64,000 nt of DNA from Stegostoma tigrinum (GCF_030684315.1 NC_081363.1:39974200-40038199), one strand, 5' to 3'; numbered from the stretch's first letter, positions 1,319 through 51,500 are shown. Numbers and translations: made by a program. The notes: generated by a model from the sequence alone, not told the origin.

Positions 1319-1320
1319 AT

Positions 1321-6474: not shown

Positions 6475-8580
6475 ATCCTAGGATGCAAGCCATCAGGGCG
6501 AGGGAAATTATTTGCTTTTTGGCCAATTAGTTCACTACTTCTTTAGCGATGGTGATGGTACTTAATTCCTCCCCAAACTCTTTAACATTGATGGAATTTT
6601 TTTTATATGTCCTCCACCATAAAGACTGATTTATAATATGTTTAGCCATTTCCTTGATCCCCAAAACTGTATCCCCAAGTCATTTTCTAAGGGCCTATGT
6701 CCATTTTAACCTCTCCCTTTTTGGATGTTTAAAAAAATACTCTTATTGTCAGTTTTATTTTCCTCACCAGTTTGCCTTATAGTCTATTTATGATGTTTTC
6801 ATTATCTTTTTAGTCTTCCTTTTCTGGATTCTTAATTTATCCCAGTCTTCACAGTTATCACAGATTTTGACCTCCTTTTTCGTTTTCTTTCAACTAAATA
6901 CTTTCCTTCTTTGGTTAGCGACGCTTGGTTTCTCTTTCTCCGGGAGTCTTTCCTCCATTCTGGGATGTATCTTCTTTCAGAGAGTTACAAATTGCTTTCA
7001 TAAATGTCAGCTGTAGTTTGCTGATTGTCATTCCCACTAATTTATCTGACCAGTTCATTTTAGCTGTCATTCCCCGTTTCATTGTGATTCCCTTTATTTA
7101 AACACAGTTGTTTCCAACCTAAGTTTCTCACTCTCGGCCGAACATTAAATTCTATCATGTTATGATTACTACTTTCTAGGGTACATTTTACTCAGACGTC
7201 ATTTATTGAAACTGCCTCATTATTCATTACCAGCTCCAAGATAGCCTGCTCCCTGGTTGGGTCCATGACATTTTGCTCTAGGAACCAATACTAATGCACT
7301 GTATCAATTTATTGTCATACCTATCCTTTCCAATTTGATTATACCAATTAGAAGATTAAAGTCACCCAAAATTATTGCTCTATTCTTTTTATATTCTCTT
7401 ATTGTTTGTTGACTTACAGCCTTTCCCAGAGTGACTACTGTTTGGGGGGAGTCCGTATACTATTCCTACCAATGACTACTCTTCCTTGCTGTTTTTTAAC
7501 CTCCACCCAAATGGACTCATCATCCGAGACTAGATCTTCTCTCACAACTGTCTTCATTGTGTTTAGTATTAACAGTGCTAACCTACCACATTTTCCATTC
7601 CTCCTGTCTCTCTGAAAAGTCAAATATCCCTGAATATTAAGTTCCCAGTTTTGATCTCCTTGTAACCATGTTTCTGTAATGGCTATGACCAATCATATTC
7701 ACTTACCTCAATGTGCATCTTCAATTCATCTAACTTATTCCAAATCCTTCACACATTAAGATTCAAAGCCTTTAATTTTATTCTATTATTGAGTTTGCCT
7801 ACAATTTTATGGTACCTTAGCACTTTATGATATTCACAAATTCTATCCCTTCCTTTTAATTACTGGTAACAAGCAAACTCATCAACAATCTACAATCCTA
7901 TCATCTCCTTTATCTTTGATTTTACAATTTTCCATGCAACAGAATCCACTATTTAAAGTCCTATCTAGAGCTCTGGTTACATGATTCACCAGGACTTTAA
8001 TCTCAGCATGATTCAGGTGGAGCCCATTCCATCAGAAATGTTTGGTCCTTCCCAAGTACTGGTGTCAATGCCCATGAATTCAAACTCATTTCTCCAACAT
8101 CTATCTTTGAGCCATGCATTGATCTCTTGAAACTTGTTGACCCAGTGCCAATTAGCTCATGTTCAGTAGCGATCCAGAGGCTTTCATCTCTGCTTTCTAA
8201 TTTAGCACTTAGCTGCTCATAGTCCCTCAGCAGAACCTCTTTTCTCTTTCTACCTATATCAATTCTGCCCACATATCCATGACAACTGGATCTTTCGTCT
8301 CCCACACCAACATCTCCTGCAGCCCAGAAGCAATATGCTGAATCCAGGCATCACGCAGGCAAATCTTCTCTTTTCTCCCCACTCTTAAATGGTTCCTTGT
8401 GCCATGGTGCCACAGTCAAGTTTGCTATCCACATCTACAGCCCTTGATCTCATCCACACAAACAAATCTCAAACCTGTTAGACAAGCTCAAGGGCTAAGG
8501 TTTCTTCAGCACTACCTCCTGAATCCCTCTATCTGCCTTGTTCAGTCACGCCATCCTGTCCCTGACCACTGAAAAAATTG
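6475..8580 (-). mobile_element. Old CR1 fragment (APE/ORF1 region)
   Basis: VIAITETWLQGDQNWELNIQGYLTFQRDR on the minus strand. Confidence 0.75.
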
Positions 8581-8588
8581 GATATAGT

Positions 8589-8695
8589 CAGAAGTCACAC
8601 AACGCCAGGTTATAGTTCGACAGGTTTATTTAAAATCACAAGCTTTTGAAGCACTGCTCCTTCATCAGGTGGACTTTGACCACTCCAGTCTCTAC
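8589..8695 (-). mobile_element. Family-D hammerhead-bearing mini-element
   Basis: Minus strand CTGATGA-A-GGAGC agt GCTTC-(A)AAAGCTT; TSD AAATTGGA(T/C)ATAGT at 8575-8588 and 8696-8709. Confidence 0.7.
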
Positions 8696-9719
8696 AAATT
8701 GGACATAGTTAATCTATGGAGTGTGACTGCCTCCTGAAACACCAGGTAACTCTCCTCACCCTGACATGTTCCAGTGTTTTTTTAAGTTCAGGCTCCAATT
8801 CATCAACTCTGAGCCAGAATGGGGTCCACCAGCTCCCACATCACGCCCTCCATCTCTGTTTTATTTACATAGATCTTAATTTGTTTTTTTTAAGTCCTAC
8901 TGGTCTTTCAATTTGCAATCTGTAAATATTTGTATCTACCTACAATCTGAAAGCAACATATAATATTCAGTCAAATTAGCTGCAATTGAACTTACGGTTT
9001 TAAAGAGAACAACAATGAAAATTGCAGCACAGGAACCGTTCCTTCAGCCCCCCAAGCCTGCGTCAATAATGTGCCCGTGACGTCAATTTTTACTTTGTGC
9101 TGTGCCCCCGATACTGACGTTCAACTTATCCTGTTAAAAAGACCCTACAAGCTATGAACTAAAAAAGCAAGCAAAAAGCACCCCATGCCCTCTGCACCAA
9201 ATTCCCACACTGCCTCCAAAGTTCCCAAGCTATATTCTGACTCAGGCTTTGTCTCAGTCCAGACATAATCTCTCCTTCCTGACCATGCAAAGCCTACTGA
9301 TGGTGCACTTTTAATAGGACCTCTCTTAAATAGAAGTGAGGTAAGTTGAGATGGTCACCCTGCATTTTACCAATTGGGAGGGCTGCCCATGTTCCTGCCT
9401 CCTGGGAACAGAATTAATCTCAGCAGTGGAATGTACAGGCCCATACACAGTCATTAATTGACTTAAGGATGTCAATTGGTGGTGCGGCAAAGAGACCTTA
9501 AGCTAGTGCTGACAGAAATATTGTGGGCACCTCCCTAAAGCAAAGCCAAGTAATTTACTTCGTCTCCCATCACATCCTCTGCCACTTCTCAGATGGGAAG
9601 ATTCCATACCATTTCTATATTTTTGAAACTTGTTGAAAGATTAAGTGATTTTAAAAAAGTGTGTTGGAAGGCCGGAAGCCATACATTGAAGCAAATCTAA
9701 TAAACATCCATTTTCAAGG

Positions 9720-9886
9720 GTATCAGAGATAATAGGAACTGCAGACGCTAGACAATCCAAGATAACAAGGTGTAGAGCTGGATGAAACAGCATTGTGTTC
9801 ATCAAGGGTCTAGGCCCAAAACGTCAGCCTTCTTACTCCTATGATGCTGCGTGGCCTGCTGTGTTCATCCAGCTCTACAGCTTGTT
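9720..9886. mobile_element. Palindromic PLE mini-element (family A)
   Basis: Inverted arms; TSD ATCCATTT(T/C)CAAGG at 9706-9719 and 9887-9900. Confidence 0.8.
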
Positions 9887-11001
9887 ATCCATTTCCAAGG
9901 CTTGTCTTCTGCAATGAGTCTTATTTTCACCTTCAGCCTATGGCACAAACTCTGCTCTGACTAGTTCTCATAAAGAGTCAAAATGAACATCAATTCTTCT
10001 CTTTTTGGAGATACTGTCTGCCTTGCTGAGTATTTCTTTCTGTCTTTGCTGCCACAATGCAACATTGTCACCAGTTACATGGACAGTCTCAGGCTGAAAA
10101 TCTCATTGTCCTTGTAGATCTGAATTAGGTTTGAGTCATAACCTCTCAATCACAAATACTTCCACAGAAAAATATCAGTCATTTCTGCCACCTTAAGATA
10201 TCTACCAATAAAACCCTTTTGCATGTTTCAAAATCAAAAAATCCCTCCAGTGTGGAAACAGGCCATTCAGCCGAAGTCCACATTAACTCTCTCATTTCAA
10301 ATTAAAATATTCCAATGTTAAGTTCCATCCTCCAGTTTTCAGGAATGACAACACATCCATAATTGATACAATAGGTATGCTGCGCCATATCCCACTTTCC
10401 AAAACCCCATTTTCATTGATATCATTAGCTCCTGAAGATTCCACTGTCTCACATTTTCACTGAAGCATAAGCAATTTGTTCTTTGGTATCTGTTCATTTG
10501 ATAATTCAGTTGCTAAACTACATAACATTTATAGAAAAGGACATATGGGCAGCTTCATACAGAGACCAATGAATGTGGAAATTGCAATGTCTTTTGAGGA
10601 GTATTGTCAATGTTTTTCAAAGTCATTGCACAGGCTTACTTTGAAATTTGTTTTAATACCTGTTATATTGACCTTCAGAAAACCTCTTTTTTTATGGGAT
10701 CTGAGCATTGCTGGCAAGGCCAGCATTTGCTGTCCAGCCCTAAAAACCCTACAGATCAGTAGTTTGTAAGCCATTCCAGAGGGCAATTAAGAGTCAACCG
10801 TATTGCTGTGGGTCAGGAGTCTCATGCACACAGGCCAGAGGACAGACGCATAGTTGATTTTCCTGTTGTGAACCTGATGGGCATTTACAACAATGTGGCA
10901 CCATTTCAGACACTAACTTTTAATTCTACATTTATTGATTGAATTTGAATTCCACCATCTACTGTGGTGTGATTTGATTCCCAGAATCCATGGTCCCAGA
11001 A

Positions 11002-11090
11002 CAGTGCTGAGGAAGGGTCACTGAACCCTTCTTATTTCTCTCTGCTGATGCTGCCAGATCTGCTGAGCTTTCCCAGCAATTTCTCCTTTT
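11002..11090 (+). mobile_element. Family-C fragment inside a SINE (older copies at ~9965-10040, 14790-14910, 22225-22395, 35765-35880, 57115-57200)
   Basis: CTGAGGAAGGGTCACTG...GATGCTGCCAGATCTGCTGAGCTTT; 9-bp TSD GTCCCAGAA. Confidence 0.65.
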
Positions 11091-14000
11091 GTCCCAGAAT
11101 ACTAGCCTAGGACTCTGGATTACTAGTCAAGTGACAACACTACCACTACACCACTATTTCCCTGTCAGAATTCGAGGCAACATCTGTTGTTTCAAAGTGC
11201 ATCCTCTTATTACCGTCATCAAGTATCCTCTTTACTTTCCAAAATGCAACAGACAGAGCAGCAAGAAATACTATGATTAAATTTGTATTTAAAGTCATTT
11301 ATTTTCAACAAGTGCTTTTAGAAGATGCAAACAGTTAATGACTGCCAGATCTTACTGAGGCACCATTCATGTCAAAGTACACTTATTAATTACTGCATTG
11401 GTATTCTAATCACAGCATAACAATTCCCTTTAAGAAAACTATAGTTGTCAATAGACAATGGTTAGAACCATAGAAATAGAAATGATACAGCACAGAAGAT
11501 GACCACTTTTTTAGCTTTAGAGCATTTACAGCTTTTGCTGTAACAGCATATATAATGCACCAAATGTTTCAAAGCATGGAAAAAATCTTTTAGAGCTCTG
11601 TGGGTTATGGTGAATGTTTGGCATAAGTGGGCAACAAATGTGGTGACATCGATCTCAATATCATAATTAAATTGCTGAACCTTCTATGTTTTTCACAAAT
11701 GCATGGCAAGATTCACTAGACAGCCATGAGATGTCAGTTGACAGTCATTAATGCTTGTTAAACACCTTCTTAAAGCCAGTAATCACCTTACTGCCTACCA
11801 AATTTACCAAACAAGCTGGACATGGGAAAAAAATCGCAACAAGGAAACCAGAACATGTACCTGGCAGATTCAGCTAGCTGAAGTTACCTTCATGTTGGAC
11901 ACCTGGCAATAACATCTTGAAACAATCTACCAACACCAGCCAACCACATTCCCCCTCTATGGGAACTGGCGTCAGGAAGTAGCCAACCCAATGTAATGTT
12001 CCTAGCACTTCTACTCTGCACTGGCAGTGCACTCTGAAAGCACAGACTTGCATTGCAAGACAAACCAGTAAGGAGCACTGAAATGCTTCAGTGGGGACAC
12101 TTTGTGCACAGGGAAGCAACCAACTCTCAAACTGGATTATACTGCATCTTAGGAATGCTCTTTGCCCTCGCACTTGGTCACAGTGCCTACCTGCATTTTC
12201 ATAGCATTCGTGCCTTGCCTTTCCAATTATTACTCTTACCCAACCAAGTAGCTTACTTTGCATCTAAGCAGTCCTCAGCCTAGGGGGTGCATATCTTGCT
12301 GTACATCAGTATGCTAATCAATCTCACACCTGGTCCATACCAACAGGATACACAGCAAAACAGTGGATCTGCGGCAAAACAGGCAGCCACATATTCTAAG
12401 GAGATCAGTCCTCACTGAAGTCCATGCAAGCAACAGTCAGTCAGAGGGTTACAGTGCAGTAAATCAAGTGCAGCTTCCCATACTGCAGAAAGGCATTAGT
12501 TACAGTCAAGCATCCGTTTGTGTATTGCGGGGATGGGGGCTCTTAGGCAGGTTGCTCTTGGCTTTGGGAATAGGCCTAATGCTGTCATGTCTAGTTACTC
12601 ACTGAATATGGGCATCGTTGTCTGGACCAGCGTTTATTGTCTGTATGTGGCTGCTTCTCAGAAAATGGTGCTGAGCTGCCTCCTAGAACCGTAGCTGGCC
12701 ACTTGCTGTAGGTAAACCCACAATGCCATTAGCAAGGGGATTCCAGGATTTTGATACAACAAAACTGAAGGAATAGCGATATATTTCCAAGTCAGCATGT
12801 TAATGGCTTGGAGCATGCAGGTGGTGGTGTTCCCATGTAGCTATCAGACCATAATAAATAGGAACAGGATAGGCCATTTGGCCCCACAAGCTTGCTCAAC
12901 CATTCAATAAGATCATGGCTCATGTCCACTTTCCTGCCCTTTCTGTATAACCCACAATTCCCCTACTGACCAAGAATCTAAGACTTAAATATACACAAGG
13001 ACTCTGCCCCTCAGCTCTGGGTGGCAAAGAGCTCCAAAGACTCTCAACCATCTGAGAAGGAATTCCTCCTCATCTCAGACTTAAAATAATCCCTTTTTAT
13101 TTTGACATGAAGCCCTGTGGTCCTAGAGTCTCCCATGAGGGGAAACTTCCTCTCAGCATTTACTCTGTCAAGACCCTTAAGAACCCTATAAGTTTAAATG
13201 AAATAAACCCTCATTCTTGTAAATTCCAGTAAATACAGTCACAACCTGTTTACTGATAAGACAACCCCTCCAAAAATATCTACTGCCCTTATCCTTCAAC
13301 ATGGTAGTGGTCTTGGGTTTGAAAGTACCCTGGTGAATTTCTGCACTGCATCTTGTTGATAGTACATATGATTACTGTTGAGCATTAGGGAGTAGAATGT
13401 TTGTGGATGTGATGCTGATCAAGCAGGCGGCTTTGTTCAAGCTTCTTGAATGTTTCTGGTGCTGGACTCATCTAGACAAGTGGACAATATCCATCAAGTT
13501 CCAGACTTGTGCTTTGTGCATGGTGGATAGACTTGGAAGTCAGCAACTGTGTTACGATATAAGCATACATAGTAACTTCAGCATCCCCAAGGTGCAGGTT
13601 AGTCCAGCATGAGGGGTAGGTGCTTGTCCCTGCCTATTTAATATGTACCAGTTATTTCCCTGGGCATATCTGATCACGTATCTTGAGAGATGAGGCGGCA
13701 GTCAGTCTGTCGGGTTCAAACCCCAGACACAAAAGGTAGATCAATGCTTTTGAAACATTTTCTGATAAGCCCATTTTGTAACTTGATAAGGGTATTGAAA
13801 CACCAAGAGTGGAGGGAGAGATGAGTCGGCAAATTTAGTTAAAATAATGGAAAATCATTCAGTTTTCTCATTTTCACCTGTTTTCATTTTTTCTATTCTG
13901 CCATTGACAGTAGTCATTTACCGACAGTCTATCTTTATCCTGGCTTATCTTTTAACACAGTAATTGCACTAAGCAATTTACAATCTTTGTTCCTTTCAGC

Positions 14001-14745: not shown

Positions 14746-15211
14746 ATGGCAGTTTATAGACCGACATTTTCCTAGCTACCATCAATTGCAACGAAGGGTC
14801 ACAGACCTAAAACATTAACTCTGGTCTTTTCTTCACAGATGCAGTCAGACCTTCTGAGCTTTTCCCGCAACTTGTGCTTTTGTTCCTAATTTACAGCATC
14901 AGCAACTCTTTCTGTAATGAGGTGGTACAGTATTTGTGAAATACTGCTCCACAAATCCAATAGCTCATTGAAATTGCATGTGATTAGACTTAAACCCACT
15001 CGAGCACATAATTGATACAGTATGTTGCTACACTGTCAAAGGCGTTCAGCTTTTTAAGATTTGAAAAAAAAGCCCATTTGCCTACATAAATGGATGTGAA
15101 ACATCACATAGCATATTATTTGGAGGGCGAGAGTTCTTTCGGTGCCCTGGCTAATCAATCATTTATCTCCCTTTAACGGTTATCGTTGCTTATAAGCAAT
15201 TATGAAACCAA

Positions 15212-15341
15212 TGATAACAAGGTGTGGAGCTGGATGAACACAGCAATCCAAGCAGGAAAGCTACGCTTGACCTGCTGCATTCATCCAGCTCCACACCTTG
15301 TTATCTCGGATTCTCCAGCATGTGCGGTTCCTATTAGCTCT
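15212..15341. mobile_element. Palindromic PLE mini-element (family A) inside a DeuSINE remnant
   Basis: GATAACAAGGTGTGGAGCTGGATGAA and TTCATCCAGCTCCACACCTTGTTATC arms. Confidence 0.8.
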
Positions 15342-20400: not shown

Positions 20401-23400
20401 CCAAGCAAGCTATTTCAGCTGTCAGCACCCAACGATAAGCATGTTCCTAATCCCTCTTCCTGCTGGTTTGCAGTTCAGGGTTTTTTGGATGTTTTATCCA
20501 GTTTAGCTTTGGAAAGCTGTGATTATTATTTCTTTGTATATTTCCCCCTCAGGAACAATATATATGCTAGATTTTAACACCTCCTTCAACCTGACCTACC
20601 ATCCTCACCGCATGGCTTGCACACAATGTAGTTTAAGTAAATCTAACTGTTTGATATTCATACGGACTCTGGAAAAGTTAACTGCTTAACTTTTCCGCTA
20701 GGATGGTGAAGATGATGATGATGACTGGTGTGAAGAAACCACGGAGGAAGCCCAGCGGCGTCGAATGGGTGAAATCAGTGAGCATGCCAAAAATTTGACA
20801 CTCAGTGATGATCTGGGGAAAACTTTAGAAGAAAGAGTGAACTTGTTCTACAACTTTGTCAAGGTATTCATTATGTCGTACACTTTCAGCTGTATGGCCC
20901 TAACCCTGCTTTTGCTCTGAAATTCAGTCTTCACTTTTTTCTATTGGCTTCCATCTGTAAAAGTTGAGCAGTATATACAGTAGCATTAAACAGAGCATAC
21001 AGCACAAACAGGCCCATCAGCCCAACTCATCCATGTTAACCAGGTTTCCTAAACTGAACTATTCCTATTTGCTGGTGTTTTGGCCCATATCCCTTGTATC
21101 AATTTTTTCCAAATATTTAAATGTTGTATCATACCTGCCTCTACCAGTCCCTTTTTGGCAGCCTGTTCAAATAGATTAGGTTCCCTACAGTGTGGAAACA
21201 GGCCCTTTGGCCCAACAAGTTCACGTCGCCCCTTGAAGCATTCCCCCCGCCCCGCCATAACCAACACACCCCTGAACACTACAGGCAATTTTTAGCATGG
21301 CTGATCCACTAGCCTGCACATCTTTTGGATTGTGGGAGGAAACCCACACACGGAGAATGTGCTAACTCCACACACAGTCACCCGAGGCTGGAATCGAACC
21401 CGGGGCCCTTGCGCTGTGAAGCTGCAGTGCTAATCACTGAGACACCACCCTCCTGAGGAAAGGAAAAGGGGAGCAACAGTTAGCCCTTGTGTCCCTTTTT
21501 TTAAAATCTTCCCCTCTCCTTAAACCTATGCCCTCTAGTTTTGGACTCCTCAACCCTATGCTCTCTTGTTCTTTTCCTCTTTTGCATCTTTATATCTGGC
21601 AGTAACAGTGGAGTAGGAGGAGAGCATGACATCCCGGCCCCTGTACCCGATGCTGTGACTAGTGAAGTCAAGTGTGCAAAATTTTTTGACTACGCTTTAA
21701 CTTGTCAGTTCCAAGCATTACTTACACAATGTGGTTCTTTGCAATAATTAGAACTAATTGCATTTCATAGAACTACAAAATATTTCTATTGTACTGAAGC
21801 TTGGTTTAGAAGCACAAACAGATCTAATATCAATGATGGAACTCCATCTTTAAATTTAATCACGACTTTGTATTTTCCCATTGTATGGTTGCATTGGATA
21901 TAACTTAATGTCTTTGTTTTTTTGATAATCCAGAAATTGAGTATTAAATTAGTTGGTATTCCACTCTAAAAGCGGGGAAAATGAAGTCTGAAAACTGAGT
22001 GTTGGACAATGTAACTGGCTGTGATATTTTCTTGCAGAAAAAGAAGGAGGAGGGCATTATTGATTCTGCTGATAAAGATCTTCGATCAGAAGCTGAAAGA
22101 TTGGATGTAATAGCTATGGGCCCTCTCATACTGAGTGAACTGCTTTTTGATGAGAACATAAGAGATCAGATCAAGAAATATAAACGACACTTTCTACGTG
22201 TAAGTAACTTCTCCCTCTCCCAAACTGAACAAAGCTGCAAATGCTAGAAATCTGAAAGATTGCTGGAGAAGCTGCTTCAGTCTTGCAGCATCTGTGGAGA
22301 GATGGTAGGAGGGTCTGAAATTCACTGGACTTAACGTTAACTGCCCCATGTTTCACAGGTGCTGCCAGATCTGTTTCCAGCAATTTTGTTTTGCTGTTCT
22401 TTTATAGTAACAATACAAACTTGCATTTGACAGTTCTGCCATGGTAATAAAAAGGCTCAGAAGTATTTACTCGGTGGCTTTGAGTGTCTGGTGAAAATAC
22501 ATCGGGACCAGTTGCTGCCCAGAGTTCCGCATGTGTTGAAGCAGCTTTATGATGCTGATCTCTTGGAAGAAGAGGTTATTCTTGCCTGGGCTGAGAAAGT
22601 AAGTTTGAGCAAATGTGAAAATTACATGTTGCTTATGTACTGTGTAACATAAAAATACAACTACACTAGTAGAAGCCAGGATAGCTGTAATATGCAGCCT
22701 CACTGACTTCATTACTCTATTTGAAATAGTCATGAAGAATTTGGCTGAGGATATCAATCTAGTTTTTAGGGGTGGTTGTGGTGAAAGTCGCAAAGTTTTG
22801 TGTGCTGGTTTTTTAAGCTGGATTCTTCATTCCTGAGACAAGCTGAGATGACTAATTCTGTGCAATGGGGAGCCATTTTTGGTCTCTGATTTCTTTTCAT
22901 ACTTCAGATCACACTGCAGAACCTTGGCTAACAGTGTGAAGCATTAGTCAGTTTTGCTGAGATCTACAGAATTTTAATGCAGAGTAACCAGAATAACTTT
23001 TTTAAAATTATAAACAAGGTCTCCAAGAAGTATGTCCCAAAAGAACTTGCCAAAGAGATACATGCAAAGGCTGACCCATTCATTAAATGGCTAAAAGAAG
23101 CTGAGGAGGAGTCTGAAGAGGAGGAAGATGATGAGAAGGATGTGGAGGTATCTATTTAATTGGGTCCCTTGCAATTTATGAATGTTACAAACACTTGCTG
23201 TCTAATGTGTGCATTGATGTAGATTCCACAATTGATCTGTCATTCAAATTTTGATCTTGGCAGCTCTATCTTGTGGAAATCTGGAGTATTGTGTTGCACT
23301 CACTTAAACTAGTCATGTTTATTTTACAGGTGGTTTATGATAGCTCTGCAAGAGAACTGACAGTGGAAACTGTGAAACCCATTAAGACAAGAGAGGAAGA

Positions 23401-25520: not shown

Positions 25521-26626
25521 TGTAAGCTATCTGACATATGCTGGTCCTATTTCTTGACTTCTCCACTTCAGAAATACAGAGTTATGTTTGTTGCAACATC
25601 AAAAAAGGGGATGATGTTGCCTTGATTAAACTGTATTCCTTTTTTAAAAAAGATGTAGCAATATCAAGTTGTACTCCAGCATCTACTCCTAGGGGTGCAA
25701 TTCCAGCTGTCTTGTAGTAACTAGTTTCACTAAACAGCTGTGGAGTACAGAAGCAAATACTCCATTTTAATCTACATAATTGCAATGACTAGCAGGGTTT
25801 TGCTAGATAGCTAGCTACTATTTTCCTATAGGTTTCCTTCAAAGGAAGCACATGTTTCAACAGCCAGCAAATCAATTTGAAATGAAAACAGCTGCAGCTC
25901 AACCTACATTGGCTGCAACCTGACTGAACTTACCAGATGGCGTTCTTCACCTTTTTAAAGAATCTCTTATTTGCTTATTACAACTGCAATCTACAGCTGT
26001 AGTTATGAAAACAAATGATTTTCATTAGGTGTTTAGTGAGCACTACTCATGAACAAAGTGGGGAAAGGACTAGTCACAGACTTGAGGTATAGATGAGCAA
26101 TAATTTAGTGAATTGATTTCATGTAGTGGAAACTTCTTGCCATCACAAGTCCAGTGGAAAAGTGAGGGGAGTCCACTACCAGCAGAACATTGGCATGCAG
26201 TTGCACCTCAATCTGCAAAACATGTTGAATAGTGATGAGCAACCAGAGCCATGAAGTTAAGGGTATTTGGTGACCTTATGGAACTACAGCTAACCAGTGA
26301 CAGGACTGACACTTTGCATAGGACATTCCTACCAAGCTTCCAAAACCTATTCTGACTAGAGTCAAAACTATTCAGCATGAGCAACCTTTTTGAATCTATG
26401 CCAACCTATGTGTACTAACTGCACTTTCCAGCAGTTACAACAGAAACCAGGAGTATCTCAAGAAGGAAGAAGTGATAGCTTGTTTCTCCAGAGATTTTAC
26501 ACCAATCCCTCAATTACATACCTATCATAATGATTTAGACATAGGTACCTCTTGCTACTTGAAAAGAAAAGTTCTGCAAGGGGCTCTACTTGGAGCAGTT
26601 CATTAATTGAGACAGACAGTGCAAGT

Positions 26627-30315: not shown

Positions 30316-30319
30316 TTGA

Positions 30320-35189: not shown

Positions 35190-36440
35190 AAATCAATGGC
35201 AAATGGTGAATACTAAGATGTACAAATTCTAAAGGATCTTGTGAAACTTGATCAGTAAATTACGAAATGGCAGATCCAATTTAATATAGAAAAATTTAAA
35301 TTTCTGAGATTTGGCAGAAGGAATGTTGTGCTAAACATTAATTTACATGAAATACCAGTGCAGCATAACAACTTATATTTGTTTAGCATCATTAACACAG
35401 AATACCCCAAAGTGGTTAATGGGTGGATTATAAAATAATAGAAGAGTTGTCATGAACTGTTAAGAGATATGCAATAAAACTATGTCTTCAGGCTTGTGGA
35501 AAAGTAAACAAAATTTTGGGATGCATAGAAAGGGAGTACTTTTCAGTCCAGCAAGGTAATTTTCAAATTTTATTTGATCCTGGTGAAGCACATCTGACCA
35601 CTGTGCACTTTTACTCTCCCTACCTCATAAAGTATATTCAGTTACTGGGAGGTCACAGACAGGGGTTGAAGGGTTGATTCCAGAGCTTAATGTGATAACG
35701 CATGAGCAATAATCGACAATTCTGTTTTTATTTATCACTTGAAAAGTGATGGGGCTAATATTAGAAGATGAAGGATCATCAATCTGTAACGTTAATACCA
35801 TTTCTTTACACAGATGACCTGCAAAGGAACTCTAGCATTTCTCTTTTTATTTCAGATTTCTAGCATCTACTCATATTGCTTCTGAAGTACGTAAACCTGA
35901 GTTGTATTACCTGGAATTTAGAAAATTAAAAGGTGATTTTATTGACATTATGAATGTATTAAGTCATGCCTAGGAAGTCTAGGACGAAAGGCACAATATG
36001 GAAGTTAAAGCCAGACTTTTCAGAAGTGAAATTAGAAAATACTTCTGTACAAAAGGTGGCAGAAGTCTGGAACTCCCCTTCACAACTAACAACTGATAAA
36101 AGATCAAATGTAGCCTGGAATCAGAAACTGATCTGTTTGAAACAGACTGGGCCTGTAACCATTTGAGTTTAGATGAATGACTGGTGATTTTTAACACCTT
36201 GAGGGGACACTACTGTGTGAATGCTGAAAGGATGTTTCCCTTGTGGATAGATTAAAATTAGGGCACGTAGACAAGACTGAATGTGCATCATTGAATATTT
36301 TTAAGGTAGGAGTTGATTAATTCTTGACTAGTGAGGGAGTCAGTAGTTATCATGGGTAGGCATGTGTGTAGATTGAGGCCACAATCAGATTACCCATGAC
36401 CTTGTTGAACGATGGGGCATATTTGAGGGTCCCAACAGCT
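35190..36440 (+). mobile_element. Old CR1 3' fragments
   Basis: Degenerate WQ.QFN.EK and L..LV..HL motifs plus 3'UTR. Confidence 0.55.
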
Positions 36441-36488
36441 CCTAATTCAAATGTTTGAACTTTGCCTTCCAGGCGTAAAACCTGTATT

Positions 36489-36737
36489 AGCGAGTTTTGA
36501 GAAGATTTGTAGCTCAGGTTGAGGTTCTGGATGTGAGTTTGCTCGCTGAGCTGGAAGGTTCGTTCTCAGACGTTTCGTCACCATTCTAGGTAACATCATC
36601 AGTGAGCCTCCGACGAAGCGCTGGTGTTATGTCCCGCTTTCTATTTATCGTCGGAGGCTCATTGATGATGTTACCTAGTATGGTGACGAAACGTCTGAAA
36701 ACGAACCTTCCAGCTCAGTGAGCAAACTCATATCCAT
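36489..36737. mobile_element. Palindromic hammerhead-bearing mini-element (family B)
   Basis: 89-bp inverted arms 36528-36616 and 36648-36736; perfect 13-bp TSD TAAAACCTGTATT at 36476-36488 and 36738-36750. Confidence 0.9.
36565..36606 (-). ncRNA. Minimal type-I hammerhead ribozyme (family B), intact
   Basis: Minus strand reads CTCA-CTGATGA-T-GTTACC tagaat GGTGAC-GAAAC-GTC-TGAG: 4-bp stem I, 6-bp stem II, complete catalytic core. Confidence 0.8.
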
Positions 36738-37924
36738 TAAAACCTGTATTTCAGACCATTTTCCCATTGAAATAGTCTAATGTTGCTTCTCTAAAAGATG
36801 GCACTTATACAACAATGCCAAGAGTCCATTGAAAATCCAGCCACTTTCCCCATATCATGCAAGTTTAGACAACATTTTATTAGGCCACTAGATGGAGTAA
36901 TTCTTGGGCCACTGCTGCAGTTCAACTCTTCACAGCACAGAGAGCAAAATGAGGTTTTTGTTAACAGTTTACAGAATGTTCTAGAGTGCATAGTCTGCAT
37001 CCAAGAGAGATACAGATAGGGGAGATCATTTTAACTCACTAGTTCAGTGTTTTTTAAAAAACTCATTTTCCCCTGATATATTAAATTGTCTCTTAAAGAA
37101 CAAGTTTTTGTTATGACTATCACAACTTGTTGAAGGGACTACTTTAAACATCGATGTTCAGCACAAATGAGGCTGGCACACAAATAAAATTGCTAGTGAT
37201 TTACCTAGTGACGTTCCGTTTCCTTCTTGCAATCATCTGTTTTAAACTGTTTTCTGAGCAGGTATGAAGAATAACTTCCTATCAGTCTTACTTTAAAATA
37301 CAAAAATTGGTTTCTGATAAAATCATTGGGGGCTGACTACAAGTTTAACCAGCATCTAGTGTGGGGAAACCATTGTAGCTAATCTAGAAGGAAGAAGATT
37401 AGCAGAGGACCAAACAAGTATGTTTAAACAAAAATGTTTTTATAAATACTTTCGTTGTGGGCTCAGGAGGAGTAGGATTTTCTAAAAAGGGAAGATTGAG
37501 TCTCCCGTGCCCAATATTCATCAATCCCCAACACAGGCCTCGTGCGTTCCAGCCAGCTGCTATTTCTCACTGACTTCAGACAAGTATAGATAGAACATGG
37601 TAGTCATGCCTGTACATTTCGATCATTTGCTCTTTTTTCTGCCAGGCTCAAAACAGTTCACCACATGAATTTATCTCTACCTACCCAATTCCCACTCCGA
37701 ATTAAAAGTGTTAGTTCTTCCACAAATACATTTTTCCCTAACAGTTTGAAACATTCTTGGCTGAGGTATGAAGCACAATGATACGCTATTCTGATGCCTG
37801 TAGGATTCTTTACCCTATATTTAGTGGTTATGATCTCTACACACTTTTATAAAGAACAATTCATTGGCCTCTTTCTTTTCCACATTTAAGTATCAGCAGT
37901 AGTTAAATGAAACTTTTTGCTTTC

Positions 37925-39109: not shown

Positions 39110-42100
39110 GTCACCACTAGTGTCCCTGCTGACTACATCTGCAGGAAGTGCACCCAACTCCAGCTCCTTGAAAACCACGTTAGGGAACTGTAGCTGGATG
39201 AACTTCGGATCATTCGGTTCGGGAGGCAGTGGGGGTTATTGAGAGGAGTTACAGGGAGGTAGTCACTGCTCAGGTACAAGAAAAAGGCAGATGGGTTACG
39301 GTCAGGGGACGGAAAGGGAACCAGCAGGCAGTGCAGGGATCCCCTGTGGCCATTCCCCTCAACAATAAGTATACCGTTTTGGATACTGTTGGGGGGGGAC
39401 TTAGCAGGGGAAAGCAATGGGGCACAGGTCTCTGGCAGAGTCTGTCCCTGCTGCTCAGAAGGGACGGGGGAAGAGGACCAGAGCAGTAGTCATTGGGGAC
39501 TCCGTAGTTAGGGGGACAGATAGGAGGTTCTGTGGGGACGAGAGAGACTCACGGTTGGTGTGAGAGAGATAATGGGAACTGCAGATGCTGGAGAATCCAA
39601 GATAATAAAGTGTGAAGCTGGATGAACACAGCAGGCCAAGCAGCATCTCAGGAGCACAAAAGCTGACGTTTCGGGCCTAGACCCTTCGTAAGAGAGCTCT
39701 CTGAGGAAGGGTCTAGGCCCGAAATGACAGCTTTTGTGCTCCTGAGATGCTGCTTGGCCTGCTGTGTTCATCCAGCTTCACACTTTATTCTCACGGTTGG
39801 TGTGTTGCCTCCCAGGTGCCAGGGTGCGTGATGTCTCTGATCATGTTTTTGGGATCCTTAAGGGGGAGGGGGAGCAGCCCCATGTCGTGGTCCACATTGG
39901 CACCACTGACATAGGTAGGAAGAGAGATGGGGATTTAAGGCAGAAATTCAGGGAGCTAGGATGGAAGCTGAGAGCTAGGACGAACAGAGTTGTTGCCTCT
40001 GGTTTGTTGCCCATGCCACGTGCTAGTGAGGCGAGGAATAAGGAGAGAGAGGAGTTGAACATGTGGCTACAGGGATGGTGCAGGAGGAAGGGTTTTGGAT
40101 CCTTGGATAATTGGGGCTCTTTCTGGGGTAGGTGGGACCTCTACAAGCAAGATGGTCTTCACCTGAACCAGAGGGGTACCGATATCCTGGGGGGGAAATT
40201 TGCTAAGGCTATTCAGGTGGGTTTAAACTAATTCAGCAGGGGGATGGGAACCAAGATTGTAGTTTAAGTATAGAAAAGGTTGAGAGTAGGGTGGTCCGAA
40301 ATAAAGTTTCAGGGAAGCAAGATGGCACCAGCAGGCAAGAAGTTAGTTTGAAGTGTGTCTACTTCAATGCCAGGAGCGTCCGGAATAAGGTGGGTGATCT
40401 TGCAGCATGGCTTGGTATCTGGGACTTCGATGTTGTGGCCATTTCGGAGACATGGATAGAGCAGGGACAGGAATGGTTGTTGCAGGTTCCGGGATTTAGA
40501 TGTTTCAGTAAGAACAGAGAAGATGGTAAAAGGGGTGGAGGTGTGGCATTGTTGGTCAAGGACAGTATTACAGTTGCAGAAAGGATGTTTGGGGACTCGT
40601 CAACTGAGGTAGTATGGGCTGAGGTTAGAAACAGGAAAGGAGAGGTCACCCTGTTGGGAGTTTTCTAATGGCCTCCGAATAGTTCCAGCGATGTAGAGGA
40701 AAGGATAGCAAAGATGATTCTGGATAGGAGTGAGAGAGACAGGGTAGTTGTCATGGGGGACTTCAACTTTCCAAATATTGACTGGGAACACTATAGTTCG
40801 AGTACTACAGATGGGTCAGTTTTTGTCCAGTGTGTGCAGGAGGGCTTCCTGACATAGTATGTAGATAGGCCAACAAGGGGCAAAGCCACGTTAGATTTGA
40901 TACTGGGTAATGAGCCTGGCCAGGTGTTAGATTTGGAAGTAGATGAGCACTTTGGTGATAGCGATCACAATTCTGTTATGTTTACTTTAGTGATGAAAAG
41001 GGATAGGTGTATACCAATGGGCAAGAGTTATAGCTGGGGGAAAGGCAATTACGATGAGATTAGGCAAGATTTAGGGAGCATAGGATGGGGAAGGAAACTG
41101 CAGGGGATGGGCACATTAGAAATGTGGAGCTTATTCAAGGAAAAGCTCCTGTGTGTCCTAGATAAGTATGTACCTGTCAGGCAGGGAGGAAGCTGTAGAG
41201 CGCGGGAGCCGTGGTTTACGAAAGAGTTGGAATCTCTGGTCAAGAGGAAGAAGGCGGCTTATGTTAGGATGAGATGTGAAGGCTCAGTTAGGGTGCTTGA
41301 GGGCTACGAGGTAGCCAGGAAAGACCTAAAGAGAGAGTTCAGAAGAGCCAGGAGGAGACATGAGAAGTTGTTGGCTGATAGGATTAGGGTAAACCCTAAG
41401 GCTTTCTATAGGTATTTAAGGAATAAAAGAATGACTAAAGTAAGATTAGGCCCAATCAAGGATAGTAGTGGTAAGTTGTGTGTGGAGTCAGAGGAGATAG
41501 GGGAAGCGCTAAATGAATATTTTTCAACAGTATTCACTCTAGAAAACGACAATGTTGTCGAGGAGAATACTGAGATACAGGCTACTAGACTAGGTGGGAT
41601 TGAGGTTCACAAGGAAGAGGTATTAGAAATCCTTCAGAGGGTGAAGATAGATAAGTCCCCTGGGCCAGATGTGATTTATCCTAGGATCCTCTGGGAGGCC
41701 AGGGAGGAGATTGCTGAGCCTTTGGCATTGATCTTTAACTCGTCATTGTCTACAGGAATAGTGCCAGACGACTGGAGGATAGCAAATGTGGTTCCCCTGT
41801 TCAAGAAGGGGAGTAGAGACAACCCTGGTAATTATAGACCAGTGAGCCTTACCTCAGTTGTTGGTAAAGTGTTGGAAAAGGTTATAAGGGATAGGATTTA
41901 TAATCATCTAGAAAAGAATAAATTGATTAGGGATAGTCAGCACAGTTTTGTGAAGGGAAGGTCGTGCCTCACAAACCTGATTGAGTTCTTTGAGAAGTGA
42001 CCAAACAGGTAGATGAGAGTAAACCGGTTGATGTGGTGTATATGGATTTCAGCAAGGCGTTCGATAAGGTTCCCCACAATAGGCTATTGTACAAAATGCG

Positions 42101-43195: not shown

Positions 43196-43317
43196 ATGAC
43201 CCAGCAATGACGAAAGAATAGTCATACCAAGACAAATCAGGAAACTAAATCTAAGCACAGTGAACGACATAGCCAAAATAATGGAGTGAAATCTGAAAAA
43301 GACAAGCTCAAAATATA

Positions 43318-43411
43318 AGAGATAACAAGGTGTAGAGCTCGATGAACACAGCAGGCCAAGCAGCATCAGAGGAGCAGGAAGACTGATGTTTCGGGCCTAG
43401 ACCCTTTTTCG
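43318..43411 (-). mobile_element. Solo PLE pLTR fragment (family A)
   Basis: 13-bp TSD AGCTCAAAATATA at 43305-43317 and 43412-43424. Confidence 0.85.
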
Positions 43412-44539
43412 AGCTCAAAATATACATTGTTCTGATCAGAGTACACCATGAATAATTTCTGGCCACCCTGTCAACAAGGCAGACATGCAGATACTGCTGC
43501 TTTTGTCATCTCAGATCCAGTCTGCTGCTCCCTTAACATCTTTGCATTCTCTACTGTCTAGAAACTTGCGCACATCCAAAGCATTCCTGTCATTTTCCTA
43601 TCCTATTCCATGTATCATTCACCCAGCACCCCTATCCTTGACAGCTACAATACCGCTCAACACCTTAAATATAAATTTGTTATTCTCATACTTAAATCTC
43701 TTTGTGGCCTCAACTTGCATCATCTTCATAGCCCTATAACCTCCCCCTAAACACACACTTGACTCTGATCCCTTTCCTTCCTTCACTACTGATAGTCAAT
43801 TTCCAAGTTTTATTTTATTCTCCACGAACTCTGTTCCTGTTCTTTGAAAAAGATGTGGATAATTCCTTCTAAAATCCCTTTCCTCATCTCTCTGTCCACT
43901 TCTTGCTGATTCAGTTTTTGTGAAGCACTTCGATCAAGACTTTAATAAACGTTATCATTGTGGAATGTAATACAAGAACCATGCGACAGAGGAATCAGGC
44001 ATGCACAGCAACTAGAGAAATATGAACTGTTAGAAAGGCATCATTTCAGAGGTGACCTAGATATTCGAACGAAACTTTAAACCAAAAATAGTGACAATGA
44101 GCTGATCTGGTCCGATTCCGGGAGTTTGATTTTGCTTTAAATAAGTTGCCTGTTCGCGAACGTTCTACTCAGAATGCAACAGAACTGGTGAATGGATTTA
44201 CAATCCGTCGCGTTTCAATTTATAAATAAAGCACACATCATGATTAAACTAAGAGGCGGAGCGAAGAACACGCCTATTAAAGATGATCCCTGTGGTGGGG
44301 CAATAGGAGAGGAAAGGTAACCAGGTTTGAAAGAGTTTCACGAACAGCCGCATTCCTATATAATTAGGCTCCTCAATGAACAGTTTATTTCAGCGAATCA
44401 ATGAGTCGACCTAATCTAATAATAAGTTGTTAAGAGTGTGGCCTTGGGCTCAGGCCAAAGGAAGGATGTTTCCGTCTCAATTACTGAATGGAAGGGATTC
44501 TTTGAGCCAGGGCGTCGAACTTGTCTAACAGTATGAGCC

Positions 44540-45521: not shown

Positions 45522-48500
45522 GTAAGTCATCTTTATTGGGTTACAAGACACCCCGGAAAAGGGAGCACGGGCTTATTGTACACCCACCGTATTTGTTTGA
45601 AGGACTAAGTGTCCAACTTGGATCATGGTTTGGAAACGAATTGCTAGTGAACTGGAATAAATGTTGAGTTGGGTTCTTTTGTAAAGCTTCTCTGCAAATT
45701 TTGGGTGTTTACTGTTAAGTAGTTAGCATGTCCTGATGCTTGGCTTTTTATATTTAGTCTTGCTGTGCGCCTATACTGCTTCCTTTTTTCATCTCAGTCC
45801 GTGTCAACACGGCGTGAGGAAGCCGACAGATGTCGGGACACATCACGGAGGTGTTGGATTTGACCGAATTGGTTTTCAAGTGAGCCGCTAGGTCATGTTT
45901 TTGGAATTGACCGTCCGAAAAACAAGTATATTTAAAAATTGGTCCCATCGTTATCTTGTTAAGAATGTATTGTATTTGAGGGCCGTTCAAAGGTTGAGCT
46001 AAGCGTTTAAAGCCCCACAGTTACTAGCTTTAATCTTTTAAGACGTTTAGCATGCCTCTTGCAAGATCAGAAGGTGTCATGAATTGTACGCTTTGTGTAT
46101 CGCCTTAGAGAATTAAAAATGATCGCATCATTACGCAGCTGGAATATTTTAAACAAATTCTGCTAATGATTGAAAATATACTTAGGATTATGGGGTGCAT
46201 TAAATATGTTGGTTCTGAAGATAGCATAAAACCTGTATAACAGTTATTAAAATGTTGTATTATCACCATGAGCTGAATTTGCTATAATATGTTTGTAATT
46301 CCTTTTCAATTGTGAACATGTCCAGGAAAGCTGATTTATAGATATTGTCCTTTTAAATGTATCTGCAGGGCACTGAGGTGTGTAATAGAAGAAATTCTGA
46401 TGTCTGTAATCTCATTCCAAAAATCCAAAGTGCTCTGAGCAACGAAGCTCACTTGTGAGCATTTTTGAAATATACCCACTTAGTTTTGTGACAGCCAGTT
46501 TGCGTGCAGCAAGGGGACCTGGTGAGTTTGTTGTGGAACTAATCTTGTCCAGGACCTTTGGAGGTTCTGAAGAGTGGGGTCAGTCGCTGAACCTCTGAGG
46601 TAAGATGCAGTTGAGTGAGGTTATATTCCATCTCTAGTAGTGGCAGCAATAATTAGAGTTGATGCACTTGCTGATGTTAGTCTTATGTCTTTTAAAGACA
46701 ATTACTTTAGCTTCATTTGTAATGGGAGAGAAATTGGGATTTTGCAAGAAGTTTGTCTTGTTCTGGACAAACTCTAATGTTACATGTATGGGATATCATC
46801 ACTTTCCAATATACTCTCCTTTTTTAAATATAAACTACTTGGGATGTGCTTTTTTCACAAGAACCAACCAACAGAGGTAAAAGATATTAATCTGTTTTAG
46901 TAATGGTGGCTGAGTTGCAAATCTTAGCCAGGAGATGGGAAGTTCTCCCCCTTAAACTGCTGTAAACTTACTCAGTTGCACCCAAAATAATTTGTCAGGT
47001 CTTAAAATTAATTTGGATAGTAGTTTTTAACTGTACCAGTACATTCAGTTATGTGACTCTTCTCTCTTTTGAGACAAAAGAATGTCTTGGGTTACCCAGA
47101 AACTAGCTGATTCTTGAAGTGCTGTTGAGCATGAGGCTGTGCTCACCATCACCTGGAAAATGTAGATGTGCACTCTCTCTTGATTTGTAGATTTGGCCAG
47201 TTTATGGGACAGATAGGACAAAATGGTAATGTCAATAGACTAATCCAGAGGAAAAACCAAGAACTGCAGACGGTGTAAATCAGGAACGCAAACAGAAGTT
47301 GCTGGAAAAGCTTAAGTGTGGCAGCACCTGTGGAGGAAAAAAGCTAATGTTTCGGGTCCAAGGAATGGTCACTGGAACTGAAACGTTAACTTCTTTCCTT
47401 CACAGGTGCTGCAGATCTGCTGAGCTTTTCCAGCAACTTCTGTTTTTATGTAATAATCCAGAGGCCCCAGCTAATGACTCGTGATGCTGGTGGAATTTAG
47501 AATTTATTAGCATTTGAAGTTGAAAGTTGTCTGTTTCAGTCATTATTACTATCATTGCACAAATCCCTTTAGTTTACTATAATAAAATGTGAGGCTGGAT
47601 GAACACAGCAGGCCCAGCAGCATCTCAGGAGCACAAAAGCTGATGTTTTGGGCCTAGACCCTTCATCAGAGGGGGATGGGGGGAGGGTTCTGGAATAAAC
47701 AGGGAGAGAGGGGGAGGCGGACCGAAGGTGGCGAGGGGATAGGTCAGTCCAGGGAAGACAGACAGGTCAAGGAGGTGGGATGAGGTTAGTAGGTAGGAGA
47801 TGGAGGTGTGGCTTGGGGTGGGAGGAAGGGATGGGTGAGAGGAAGAACAGGTTAGGGAGGCAGACAGGTTGGACTGGTTTTGGGATGCAGTGGGGGGGGG
47901 AGGGGACGAACTGGGCTGGTTTTGGGATGTGGTGGGGGAAGGGAGATTTTGAAGCTAGTGAAGTCCACATTGATACCATTGGGCTGCAGGGTTCCCAAGC
48001 GGAATATGAGTTGCTGTTCCTGCAACCTTCCTGGCATCATTATGCCACTGCAGGAGACCCATGATGGACATGCCATGTAAAGAATGGGAGGGGGAGTTGT
48101 TTGTTGTGAACTGAGCGGAGGTGTTCTGCAAAGTGGTCCCCAAGCCTCCGCTTGGTTTCCCAAATGTAGAGGAAGCCACACCAGGTACAGTGGATGCAGT
48201 ATACCACATTGGCAGATGTGCAGGTGAACCTCAGCTTAATGTGGAATGCCATCTTGGGGCCTGGGATAGGGGTGAGGGAGGAGGTGTGGGGGCAAGTGTA
48301 GCATTTCCTGTGGTTGCAGGGGAAGGTGCCAGGTGTGGTGGGGTTGGAGGGCAGTGTGGAGCGAACAAGGGAGTCATGGAGAGAGTGGTCTCTACAGAAA
48401 GCAGACAGGGGTGGGGATGGAAAAATATCTTGGGTGGTGGGGTCGGATTGTAGATGGTGGAAGTGTCGGAGGATGATGCATTGTATCCAGAGGTTGGGGT

Positions 48501-51500
48501 GGTGTGAGAACGAGGGGATCCTCTTTGGGCGGTTGTGGCAGGGGCGGGGTGTGAGGGATGTGTTGCGGGAAATGTGGGAGACGTGGTCAAGGGTGTTCTC
48601 GACCACTGGGGGAAAGTTGCGGTCCTTAAAGAATTTGGACATCTGGGATGTGTGGGAGTGGAATGCCTCATCATGGGAGCAGAAGAAAATCTGCATCCGT
48701 ACCTGATCTGGCCTACCTATGGCTCCAGACCTAAATTAATATGGTGCATTTTGACTGGCCTTTGAGATGGTCACTTAAATGGTACGCTCCAAGTGCTGGC
48801 CTTGCCAATGAACTCTCATCCCATGACGAATAAAAGCTGGAGACAGCTGTGAACGTGAAAAAAGTTGTAGGTGTGGAAGAAATGTCTGATTTAGAGGGCT
48901 TTTTGCTGCCAAATTATCATCTACATTGATGCTGTCTTGTTTTCTATTTGTTGAAATTTTCATCTAGACTGAAGCCATTCTTGTCTAATTTCACTTTGCA
49001 CAAAATATAACTACTGCAAAGCACAATGTGCTTCCACATTTCTTCTGCCCAAGCAAGTTGTTAAAAGATTCTCTCATTTTCTCCCTTTTAAAAATCCTCC
49101 ATTGCTTTGACCTATGCTACTTTTCCCAGTGAACTAATCCAGCATTGGCCTACTACTCATTCCACATTGACAGCTACTTCTTGAGCCACAGGAATGCAGG
49201 ACCTTTCTCTGTCCTACCACATCCCTTAATACTACTAAGATTGTTCTCAGTGTATGCTCTTCCAGTCTTATTATCTCCCATCCTAGAAAACATTTAAGAT
49301 GTCTTCATACTAGGATTCCTATAAAAATGTAAGTACTAATGGCCATCAGCACTGCAACCACAGTGTGGAGCTGGATGAACACAGCAAGCCAAGCAGCATC
49401 TTAGGAGCACAAAAGCTGACATTTCGGGCCTAGACCCTTCTTCAGAAAAGGTTGTGCTTCTGTGCTCCTAAGATGCTGCATGGCCTGCTGTGTTCATCCA
49501 GCTCCCCACTTTGTCTCAGATTCTCCAGCGTCTGCAGTTCCCATTATCTCTTATTGCATTTTGGTATCTGCACATTAAATTTAGTGGTAGGACATTGGAC
49601 ACAAACTGCAGAACTAAGCTTAAAGTCTCTAATTTTGAACAAAGATCATAATTGCTGAATTATGCCTTGCAGAAGGAGGCTGTTCATCCCACTTGTCTTC
49701 AGTGGTTCTCAGAACTTGACATGGGATGGGGGGCGTTGGGTGGTGCAAGTCAGAAGTTTGGTGCTACAACGTTTGAAAATTGTTATTCAAATAGAAACCA
49801 TGCAATGTCTCAAACATCTCCAACCCACTACTTAGCAGCGTGCTCCAAACTAGATGATTTTGCTGTGTGCTATGTATTTCACCTCATTTTCTGCTTTTTT
49901 TTGTAAAGCACTTTAAACCTGTCCCCTACTGTCAATCCCTTTTGAGAAGACAGTTTCTTCCTGTGTACTGTTAGATTCCATGATTTTGCAAACTTTTATC
50001 CAATCTCCCTTTGCTTTCTCTCAGAAACAGTCCTAACTTCTCCAATCTGCCCCCTTAACTGAAGTATATCATCCCTGGAACCATTCTTGTAAATATCTTC
50101 TGAGCCCACAGCAATAAATGTGCCACCTTCCTAAAGAGGGGTGCCCAGAACTGTGCACAAGCTCCAGGTATGGTTAACATGTCCAACATTGTTCAACAGA
50201 AACCCGTCCTTTGTATTTAATTTGCTGTTAGAGGCTGAGTTAATTAAAGATGGACTATTGCAAATTTTCAATGGAACTTTCAAATATTACATGAGGAGCA
50301 GAACAACGATTTGACTTGGGGGGTGGATTTTATTTTGGCCTTTGTCCAAAGGAAGGCCTTGCTTTCAAGATGTGTCAATAGAATAAATGCTTGCGTGTTT
50401 TTTGAAACCTCTATCGCTATCTCTGACTCTAACAGTTTAGTTTAAAAGCTCAACATTTTAAACTAATGTCCTTGTTTTCCTCCATCAGCACACATCTCAT
50501 GTGGATGGCCGCTCAGAAATTTCTTCTCGGCCAACCCGTTCTGGAGGCGCTCGATGCCGGAATTCAATTACGTCTTGTGTTGATGAGCAGCCACACATAG
50601 GAAACTATAGACTTCTGAAAACTATTGGCAAAGGGAACTTTGCTAAAGTGAAGCTGGCTAGACATATCCTTACTGGAAGAGAGGTAAGTTGGTCTGTAAT
50701 TGTCTTGACTTCTTTATTCATTTAGTGGAGATCAGCATACTAAGTTTTCTTTTGTTACAGTTTATAACTTCTCATTTCTAGTGTTGTCATATTTTTGACT
50801 CTTGGTAACACTCTTGTGAACCTCTGACCTTAAATCTCTTCAGGAAATCTGAGCGTTCTCTTGTATGCCTCTTTGTATTTCCCCTCTTGAAGAAGAGCTT
50901 AACAATTTCACATGGTGAGGTTCCTAAGTGAATCATAATGGGAGATCAAGTGAAAAGTATGTGAACCAGCTGAAGTATTTTTGTGTCTTTAAGTAAACAA
51001 TCAATTATATTTCTATCTTCATGGGTTTATAGGTAGCATACTCCTAAGTCATGCCATAAAACAGTTTAATGAAAGGATCCATTTTAGATTTCTTTCTGGA
51101 CCATCAGCTGACCTGTAGCCTGCATATTTTCACAGTGCAAACATTTACCATCCTTTTCCAACTCTCCTCTGACTCTGAAACCCATGTCAAGGTTGTTGTG
51201 ACCTTCAAGTTTAACTTCTCAAATGTTACTTATTAGCGTCAATGTTGTAAGCTCAAATTTTAATTTAAAAAAATCACTGCCTATATTCTATCCTCCATTA
51301 AGCACTTACTGCCCTCATCCGTGTTTTGTCTTTTACCTCCCCACGCATTATCTTAAATTATCAAACCTGTTTAAAGTTCCATGTGCAGTAACAGTGGTTG
51401 TGACTGGACTATTGATTTTGATATGAAATTAAATCCTGCAGGTGGGGTATCTAATGCATTTGTATGAAATAACTGAAGTTAAAACTATAATTGTAAAATG

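Follow-up and report, generated by a model that had tools for sequence, protein, structure and literature searches.

Short hammerhead inserts in the Stegostoma tigrinum genome as truncated ends of Penelope-like elements

A 64 kb stretch of the 3.2 Gb genome of the shark Stegostoma tigrinum (NC_081363.1:39974200-40038199, in its entirety "the window" below) contains short inserts with hammerhead ribozyme motifs, belonging to four families designated A to D. These inserts are, at a probability of roughly 90%, 5'-truncated pseudo-long terminal repeat (pLTR) ends of Penelope-like elements (PLEs), with coding relatives in the same genome. An earlier examination of the window from its sequence alone (the sequence-only reading) had listed 14 such loci and proposed that a common PLE-driven process is seeding the genome with hairpins and ribozymes. 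Its observations are partly confirmed by the analysis described here, and its interpretation is partly supported, the PLE origin and the density of the inserts standing up and the supply of working ribozymes not.

The hammerhead of each of the four families is found elsewhere in the genome 3' of sequence coding for reverse transcriptase (RT) and a GIY-YIG endonuclease (EN). For families B, C, and D, parent loci were fetched by protein queries from the GIY-YIG region, and the family hammerhead is downstream on the same strand at eight of eight loci (seven distinct inserts), 11 of 12, and six of eight, respectively. A PLE origin for these three families, previously an inference only, is shown by this arrangement, and they did not map to non-PLE elements. 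In a family A parent (L273), the order is an inverted tail-less arm, a pLTR, an open reading frame (ORF), and a tailed pLTR, the whole enclosed by a 13 bp direct repeat; the ORF, 1,093 codons counted from the first Met, includes RVT_1, YIDD, and GIY-YIG. Each short insert corresponds to the hammerhead-to-tail segment found at both ORF ends of full-length copies. The optional tail of 30–40 bp, inverted copy, and variable target site duplication (TSD) of EN-containing (EN+) PLEs are all present here.

The coding parents are preserved to different degrees. Open frames of 700–1,105 codons are common among 150 RT matches for family A, and family B has frames of 645–692 codons with RT and GIY-YIG, reading into the hammerhead. 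In family C a 492-codon frame runs from RT (with a weak RVT_1 match) to GIY-YIG, with the C hammerhead about 260 nt downstream. Family D has RT remnants, a linker, and GIY-YIG upstream of its hammerhead, in broken frames only. RVT_1 and GIY-YIG matches were obtained in A (L273) and B (L278 and L245), those to GIY-YIG slightly under the Pfam cut-off, and a CCHH zinc finger, having two cysteines between the motifs GIY and YIG, can be recognized in translations from all four families. A search of PDB sequences with the family B protein gave no match. Hammerhead-bearing pLTRs from a partial tandem are seen in A (L273 and L274) and B (L278–L281); in one D copy (L055) a pLTR is followed by the ORF start directly after the tail, and in C only the downstream pLTR was seen.

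Some other characteristics of the coding copies were noted. The near-full-length B copies L278–L281 have common flanks on four contigs, a segmental duplication, and start exactly at an ATG within hammerhead stem II, preceded by TTTTCAG. The family A ORF has a variable nine-residue tandem repeat ahead of the RT (L273:3120-3290), whose copy number varies between L273, L274, and L275. Among named proteins, the nearest to that of family A (L273:2368-5643) is one from bamboo shark, at 78%; the next relatives of the A protein, at 57% or less, are mostly unnamed, and the named ones are from marine invertebrates. Very long arrays of CA-rich microsatellites separate GIY-YIG from the pLTR in the 3' untranslated regions (UTRs) of family D (L247:1800-2660, L250:1-2350, L246:4535-6127).

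The four families had been described as unrelated, which holds for five of the six family pairs and not for A and C. Downstream of the core, A and C align at the DNA level with a score of 42 (shuffle maximum 24), the other five pairs being at shuffle level, and their proteins are 58–61% identical over two blocks, compared to about 30% for A–B and A–D. With A and C related, the sequences point to three lineages rather than four unrelated ones. A Cys-rich motif resembling a zinc finger, in the linker that joins RT to EN, is found in A, C, and D; B is without it. Families A, C, and D are presumably Neptune-type; the linker motif does not separate Neptune from Nematis. A linker zinc finger of this kind marks both of these clades (definition in PMC8557442). 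Two further B-like hammerhead families, with a different helix II and downstream sequence, occur at L144:6614 (+) and L114:916 (-).

Search profiles for the four families were made from natural copies, with shuffled sequence as a control. In the window they identify 26 arms making up 18 inserts, with no matches in the control; all 14 of the previously listed loci are among them, each fitting the profile of its own family. TSDs of 9–16 bp were found at nine of the 14. They were sought and not found at 14790, 15212, 22225, and 49361, and the locus at 1–80 is clipped by the window edge. Eight of the listed loci are one-tailed head-to-head pairs (9720, 15212, 22225, 31398, 36489, 39563, 47252, and 49361), and 26627 is a ninth pair. 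The inserts, with head-to-head pairs given as unstranded where no strand applies, are:

1..80 (+), family A arm, tail-less, with a broken core, clipped by the window edge
1307..2078 (+), family A 5'-truncated copy with the GIY-YIG end, 3' UTR, and an intact hammerhead core at 1984, tail-less
8575..8709 (-), family D single arm, tail-less, core G12 changed to A, TSD of 14 bp with one mismatch (8575, 8696)
9706..9900 (unstranded), family A head-to-head pair, left arm tailed, TSD of 14 bp with one mismatch
10993..11099 (+), family C single arm, tail-less, GAAA lost, TSD of 9 bp
14790..14915 (+), family C single tailed arm, TSD not found
15212..15341 (unstranded), family A pair without the ribozyme part, right arm tailed, TSD not found
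22225..22399 (unstranded), family C decayed pair, left arm tailed, TSD not found
26613..26867 (-), family B tailed arm plus an inverted second arm with an internal deletion, TSD of 14 bp with one mismatch
31382..31543 (unstranded), family A pair without the ribozyme part, right arm tailed, TSD of 16 bp
35767..35870 (+), weak family C arm, not previously listed
36476..36749 (unstranded), family B pair, left arm tailed, intact core at 36602 (-), TSD of 13 bp
39548..39804 (unstranded), family A pair, left arm tailed, both cores damaged, TSD of 15 bp
43303..43424 (-), family A single arm, tail-less, TSD of 13–15 bp
47241..47463 (unstranded), family C pair, left arm tailed, TSD of 11 bp
47579..48735 (-), family A 5'-truncated coding copy with linker zinc finger, GIY-YIG remnant, and pLTR, tail-less
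49357..49551 (unstranded), family A pair, right arm tailed, intact core at 49445 (-), TSD not found
57112..57197 (-), weak family C arm, not previously listed

The rest of the genome was sampled in 106 segments, each 10 kb long and placed at round coordinates of large contigs (1.06 Mb, a spread rather than a random draw). These contain 286 inserts (A 173, B 19, C 77, D 17), or one per 3.7 kb, which scales to about 860,000 for the genome (A 522k, C 232k, B 57k, D 51k). Together with the 18 in the window, this upholds the density of one insert per 4–5 kb, comparable to that of short interspersed nuclear elements (SINEs), suggested earlier. Head-to-head pairs account for 90 of the 286, and tail-to-tail neighbors for only three. 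One tail is present in 77 of the 90 pairs, none in eight, and two in five, an excess of one-tailed pairs (p = 1.6e-12) over the half expected if each arm were tailed independently, given that 97 of 196 single arms have a tail. Each family has two fixed 3' end points about 35 nt apart, one with the tail and one without. Among the 87 pairs whose flanks were complete, 45 have a TSD, called at a score of at least 9 (one in 300 for mismatched flanks), with a mode of 14–15 bp; by family, TSDs were found in 39 of 62 A pairs and just three of 19 C pairs. For single arms, among those mapped in the first 860 kb, the count was 19 of 127 (null one in 250). The picture of most inserts as palindromes with TSDs is thus correct for the listed loci and does not extend to the genome, and the size range of 90–250 bp given with it is too narrow, as sampled pairs span 107–2,685 bp.

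Each palindrome was likely built on site from one template, because its arms are alike, their 5' ends are coupled, and the centers vary from one palindrome to another. The distance between the arms of a pair is 0.079, compared to 0.138 to other inserts, and an arm is closer to its own partner in 50 of 57 cases; the two arms agree at 344 of 406 diagnostic sites, where 207 would be expected. Their 5' ends are correlated in family A (Spearman 0.66, median offset 3 nt, 50 of 57 pairs mapped), as they are in families B (0.95, 20 pairs) and D (0.82, 23 pairs), the pairs of these two being mostly query-selected. Clustering by center divides the 46 short A pairs, which were unselected, into 43 groups.

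More generally, each insertion was likely a fresh event at its site, carried out by the endonuclease and RT of the element itself. In the scheme suggested here, GIY-YIG would nick the two strands about 14–15 bp apart, giving the TSD, and the RT would begin at either of two positions within the RNA, as it does in vitro for PAc, the Poseidon element of the lizard Anolis carolinensis. Both nicks would then be extended on one RNA, one from each start site, and the two cDNAs would meet head-to-head as a one-tailed palindrome. Most copies may be short since the RNA 5' end would be just before the ribozyme, 90–130 nt from the start sites, a weaker step than the others. The PAc protein is known to nick and extend both strands and to start reverse transcription at two internal sites bounding the tail; a dimer is predicted (PMC11167929).

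Extension of both nicks on one RNA is the route toward which we lean for the one-tailed pairs. A possible though less favored alternative, also with a PLE origin, is that the mirror arm arises by fold-back, as in the self-priming proposed in PMC3846280: a cDNA started at the tail would stall, prime itself, and copy back to the proximal site, to be resolved by the endonuclease. This would account for the single tail, and for the diagnostic letters and 5' positions that the arms have in common; many centers, moreover, are perfect palindromes or have overlaps of 1–5 nt. Fold-back predicts, however, that any unpaired extra sequence should always be on the tailed arm, while among 50 A pairs it was found on the tailed arm in nine and on the other in nine. 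Later deletions at hairpin centers could blur this test. Two RTs stopping simultaneously were also considered; the arms should then be offset by about 35 nt, and the median offset is 0–3 nt.

The 5' ends of the inserts are concentrated just ahead of the ribozyme, a pile-up less expected than the rest of the architecture. A 10-nt interval from -6 to +3 around the first core C holds 61 of the 235 arms in family A and 32 of the 98 in family C, compared to eight and four A arms, and three and two C arms, in the two intervals upstream of it; no such peak is seen in the 21 B arms. Since several single arms ending at this hot spot have TSDs and unrelated flanks, the peak is not solely a matter of alignment drop-off. 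Run-off at a transcript start is a possible cause, to which we give somewhat less than even odds; the site resembles an initiator. An Inr-like TCACT in a pLTR is mentioned in PMC3846280. As other sources of these 5' ends, hammerhead cleavage should give a peak at +29, where none is clear (in family A, 16 arms at +24 to +33, with 16 and 11 in the neighboring intervals), and a 3' splice site has a fitting AG in family C only. As a tentative rule, a monomer transcript would start at the initiator-like site about 3 nt before helix I, and both nicks would be extended on that RNA from the two internal start sites; 5' run-off would then make stumps of 95–130 nt and one-tailed palindromes the default product (the approximately 860,000 inserts), full copies coming only from read-through tandem RNA.

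Several points weigh against this account or parts of it. With 150 matches scored for each, neither C nor D yielded an intact ORF; these counts are lower bounds. Thirteen of the 90 pairs deviate from having one tail. TSD rates are low in single arms and in C pairs; age and boundary error may be responsible. Family C has no positive coupling of arm 5' ends (Spearman -0.44 in 45 short, mostly query-selected pairs). Subfamily divergence upstream of the ribozyme may inflate the 5' peak. For the second arm, the coupling of 5' ends and the letters in common are equally expected under fold-back. Finally, the assignment of A, C, and D to Neptune/Nematis and of B to Penelope/Poseidon would follow from motifs and not from a tree.

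At the family level, the hammerheads are of the minimal type I (CUGANGA/GAAA/NUH, with paired helices I and II). As noted in the sequence-only reading, stem II differs between families: both helices, and the palindrome of loop 3, vary in sequence with pairing preserved. Helix I in family A is just 2 bp, and a strict scan requiring 3 bp overlooked this family. An Rfam scan of the window gave five weak matches, none to a hammerhead; there is no fitting Rfam model. The core was said to be kept, and this is not the case for most individual inserts: core and cleavage triplet are both present in only two of the 14 listed loci (36489 and 49361), with a third intact core in the window at 1984, outside that list. 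In the genome sample, 91 of 286 inserts retain the core, 55 of them as single arms, and 195 do not; intact cores scale to 86 per Mb. A C precedes core G12 in all four families, and among the copies of family A, 47 of 146 have CA or TG at this dinucleotide, as do 18 of 61 in B, 46 of 77 in C, and 56 of 73 in D, a pattern of G12 changes matching that predicted from CpG decay. The hammerhead would serve the parent element and decay in the stumps, with the CpG at G12 contributing.

It seems very unlikely that the inserts provide host transcripts with working self-cleaving ribozymes or regulatory hairpin RNAs. The retained cores would number in the hundreds of thousands genome-wide, and the two window pairs that were folded (36476..36749 and 49357..49551) are predicted to form long hairpins (z -23 and -12.7). 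However, the cores decay at CpG like neutral DNA, helix I in family A is short, and for both folded pairs the prediction is that the long hairpin locks up the region of the cleavage site. Minimal motifs of this kind cleave poorly in vitro as dimeric and trimeric constructs and not at all as single motifs (PMC4209133), PAc requires its own protein (PMC11167929), and eight of nine frog dimers did not cleave (bioRxiv 10.64898/2026.07.22.740005). Seeding with working ribozymes is unsupported because of the coreless majority, the locked cleavage-site region, and the poor cleavage of published minimal motifs.

Similarly improbable is that the short palindromes are non-autonomous families resembling SINEs, miniature inverted-repeat transposable elements (MITEs), or retrozymes, copied as units with PLE enzymes; for family A, where the centers contradict such self-propagation, it is largely refuted. 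Non-autonomous PLE derivatives have been published (PMC8557442; bioRxiv 10.64898/2026.07.22.740005), a common size class exists near 130–250 bp (69 of 87 pairs are below 280 bp), and six of the ten best matches to the 39563 pair have identical 5' points, but shared centers fall on the 5' hot spot, lengths are continuous up to full-length copies (single arms reach more than 2.6 kb), and the palindromes contain nothing that is not in the parent pLTR, to which the whole insert aligns. A fixed unit copied whole, as in a SINE or MITE, was not found in family A (for B and D, just two and five unselected pairs were available for center analysis), and the loci in the window consist of single arms and of head-to-head pairs, not of the head-to-tail tandem units of retrozymes. 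Annotating these inserts as MITEs or SINEs would be wrong.

Inverted pLTRs, a tail at one end, variable TSDs, and truncation are already published PLE features (PMC8557442, PMC3846280, PMC8969392), as are dispersed minimal hammerhead families including opposite-strand pairs (PMC4209133). The closely comparable Pen2a of Adineta has head-to-head inverted pLTRs, a 30–40 bp tail on one end, variable TSDs, heavy 5' truncation, and partial tandems (PMC3846280; scheme in PMC8557442). Unlike there, stump-sized forms dominate in the shark, at about 270 per Mb, and the TSD mode is 14–15 bp rather than 8–10 bp (PMC3846280). Family B resembles PAc in having an ORF frame that starts from hammerhead stem II and is open through the AC-rich tail, and the two shark 3' end points match the two RT start sites of PAc; in contrast, A, C, and D possess a zinc finger in the linker, and the first Met in A and D is after the tail. 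The sections of the PAc account consulted make no mention of one-tailed palindromes or a 5' hot spot (PMC11167929).

The shark hammerheads also share an unpaired base before helix II, a G10.1–C11.1 pair, and a palindromic loop 3 with the minimal hammerheads of other metazoan PLEs, which likewise occur as several families per genome, with dispersed singles and opposite-strand pairs. The scaled number of intact cores is far above the 4,000 in coelacanth and 9,000 in Xenopus (PMC4209133), figures from a different search, the one used here being looser. Non-LTR retrozymes are similarly pLTR-derived, with type I hammerheads and dispersed monomers. They form head-to-tail tandem units, unlike the single or head-to-head shark inserts, and one cartilaginous fish is covered in that work (bioRxiv 10.64898/2026.07.22.740005).

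The literature consulted, which included few subscription papers, yielded no description of the four shark families, of the count of one-tailed pairs, or of the hot spot at the 5' end, and the families may already be catalogued in Dfam or Repbase. Given the known architecture, the finding is mostly an ordinary one, with its value in the numbers: the insert counts, the strict one-tail rule, the coupling between arms, and the 5' hot spot place limits on how PLEs insert, a mechanism still unsolved. Family A, a vertebrate element not of the Poseidon type, has an intact ORF and could be used in an in vitro assay like that for PAc.

Several other features of the window were observed. A CTGAGGA...GAAACGTC motif at 44945, in a GC-rich, CpG-island-like region (44548–45057), fits none of the four profiles, and at 32120–32190 (-) CTGAGGA, a 6 bp hairpin, and GAAACGTC possibly represent a fifth, decayed hammerhead family. 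The sequence at 20182–20577 is lysine-rich and looks like a host exon, without a Pfam match. A broken long interspersed nuclear element (LINE) at 39746–42860, with an esterase-like ORF1 piece and RT, has the 39563 pair at its upstream end; we take it to be of CR1/L2 type. A dispersed repeat of about 300 bp, with copies 76–92% alike at 6293–6433, 14531–14677, 21175–21447, 30320–30604, and 62987–63250, resembles a tRNA-derived shark SINE.

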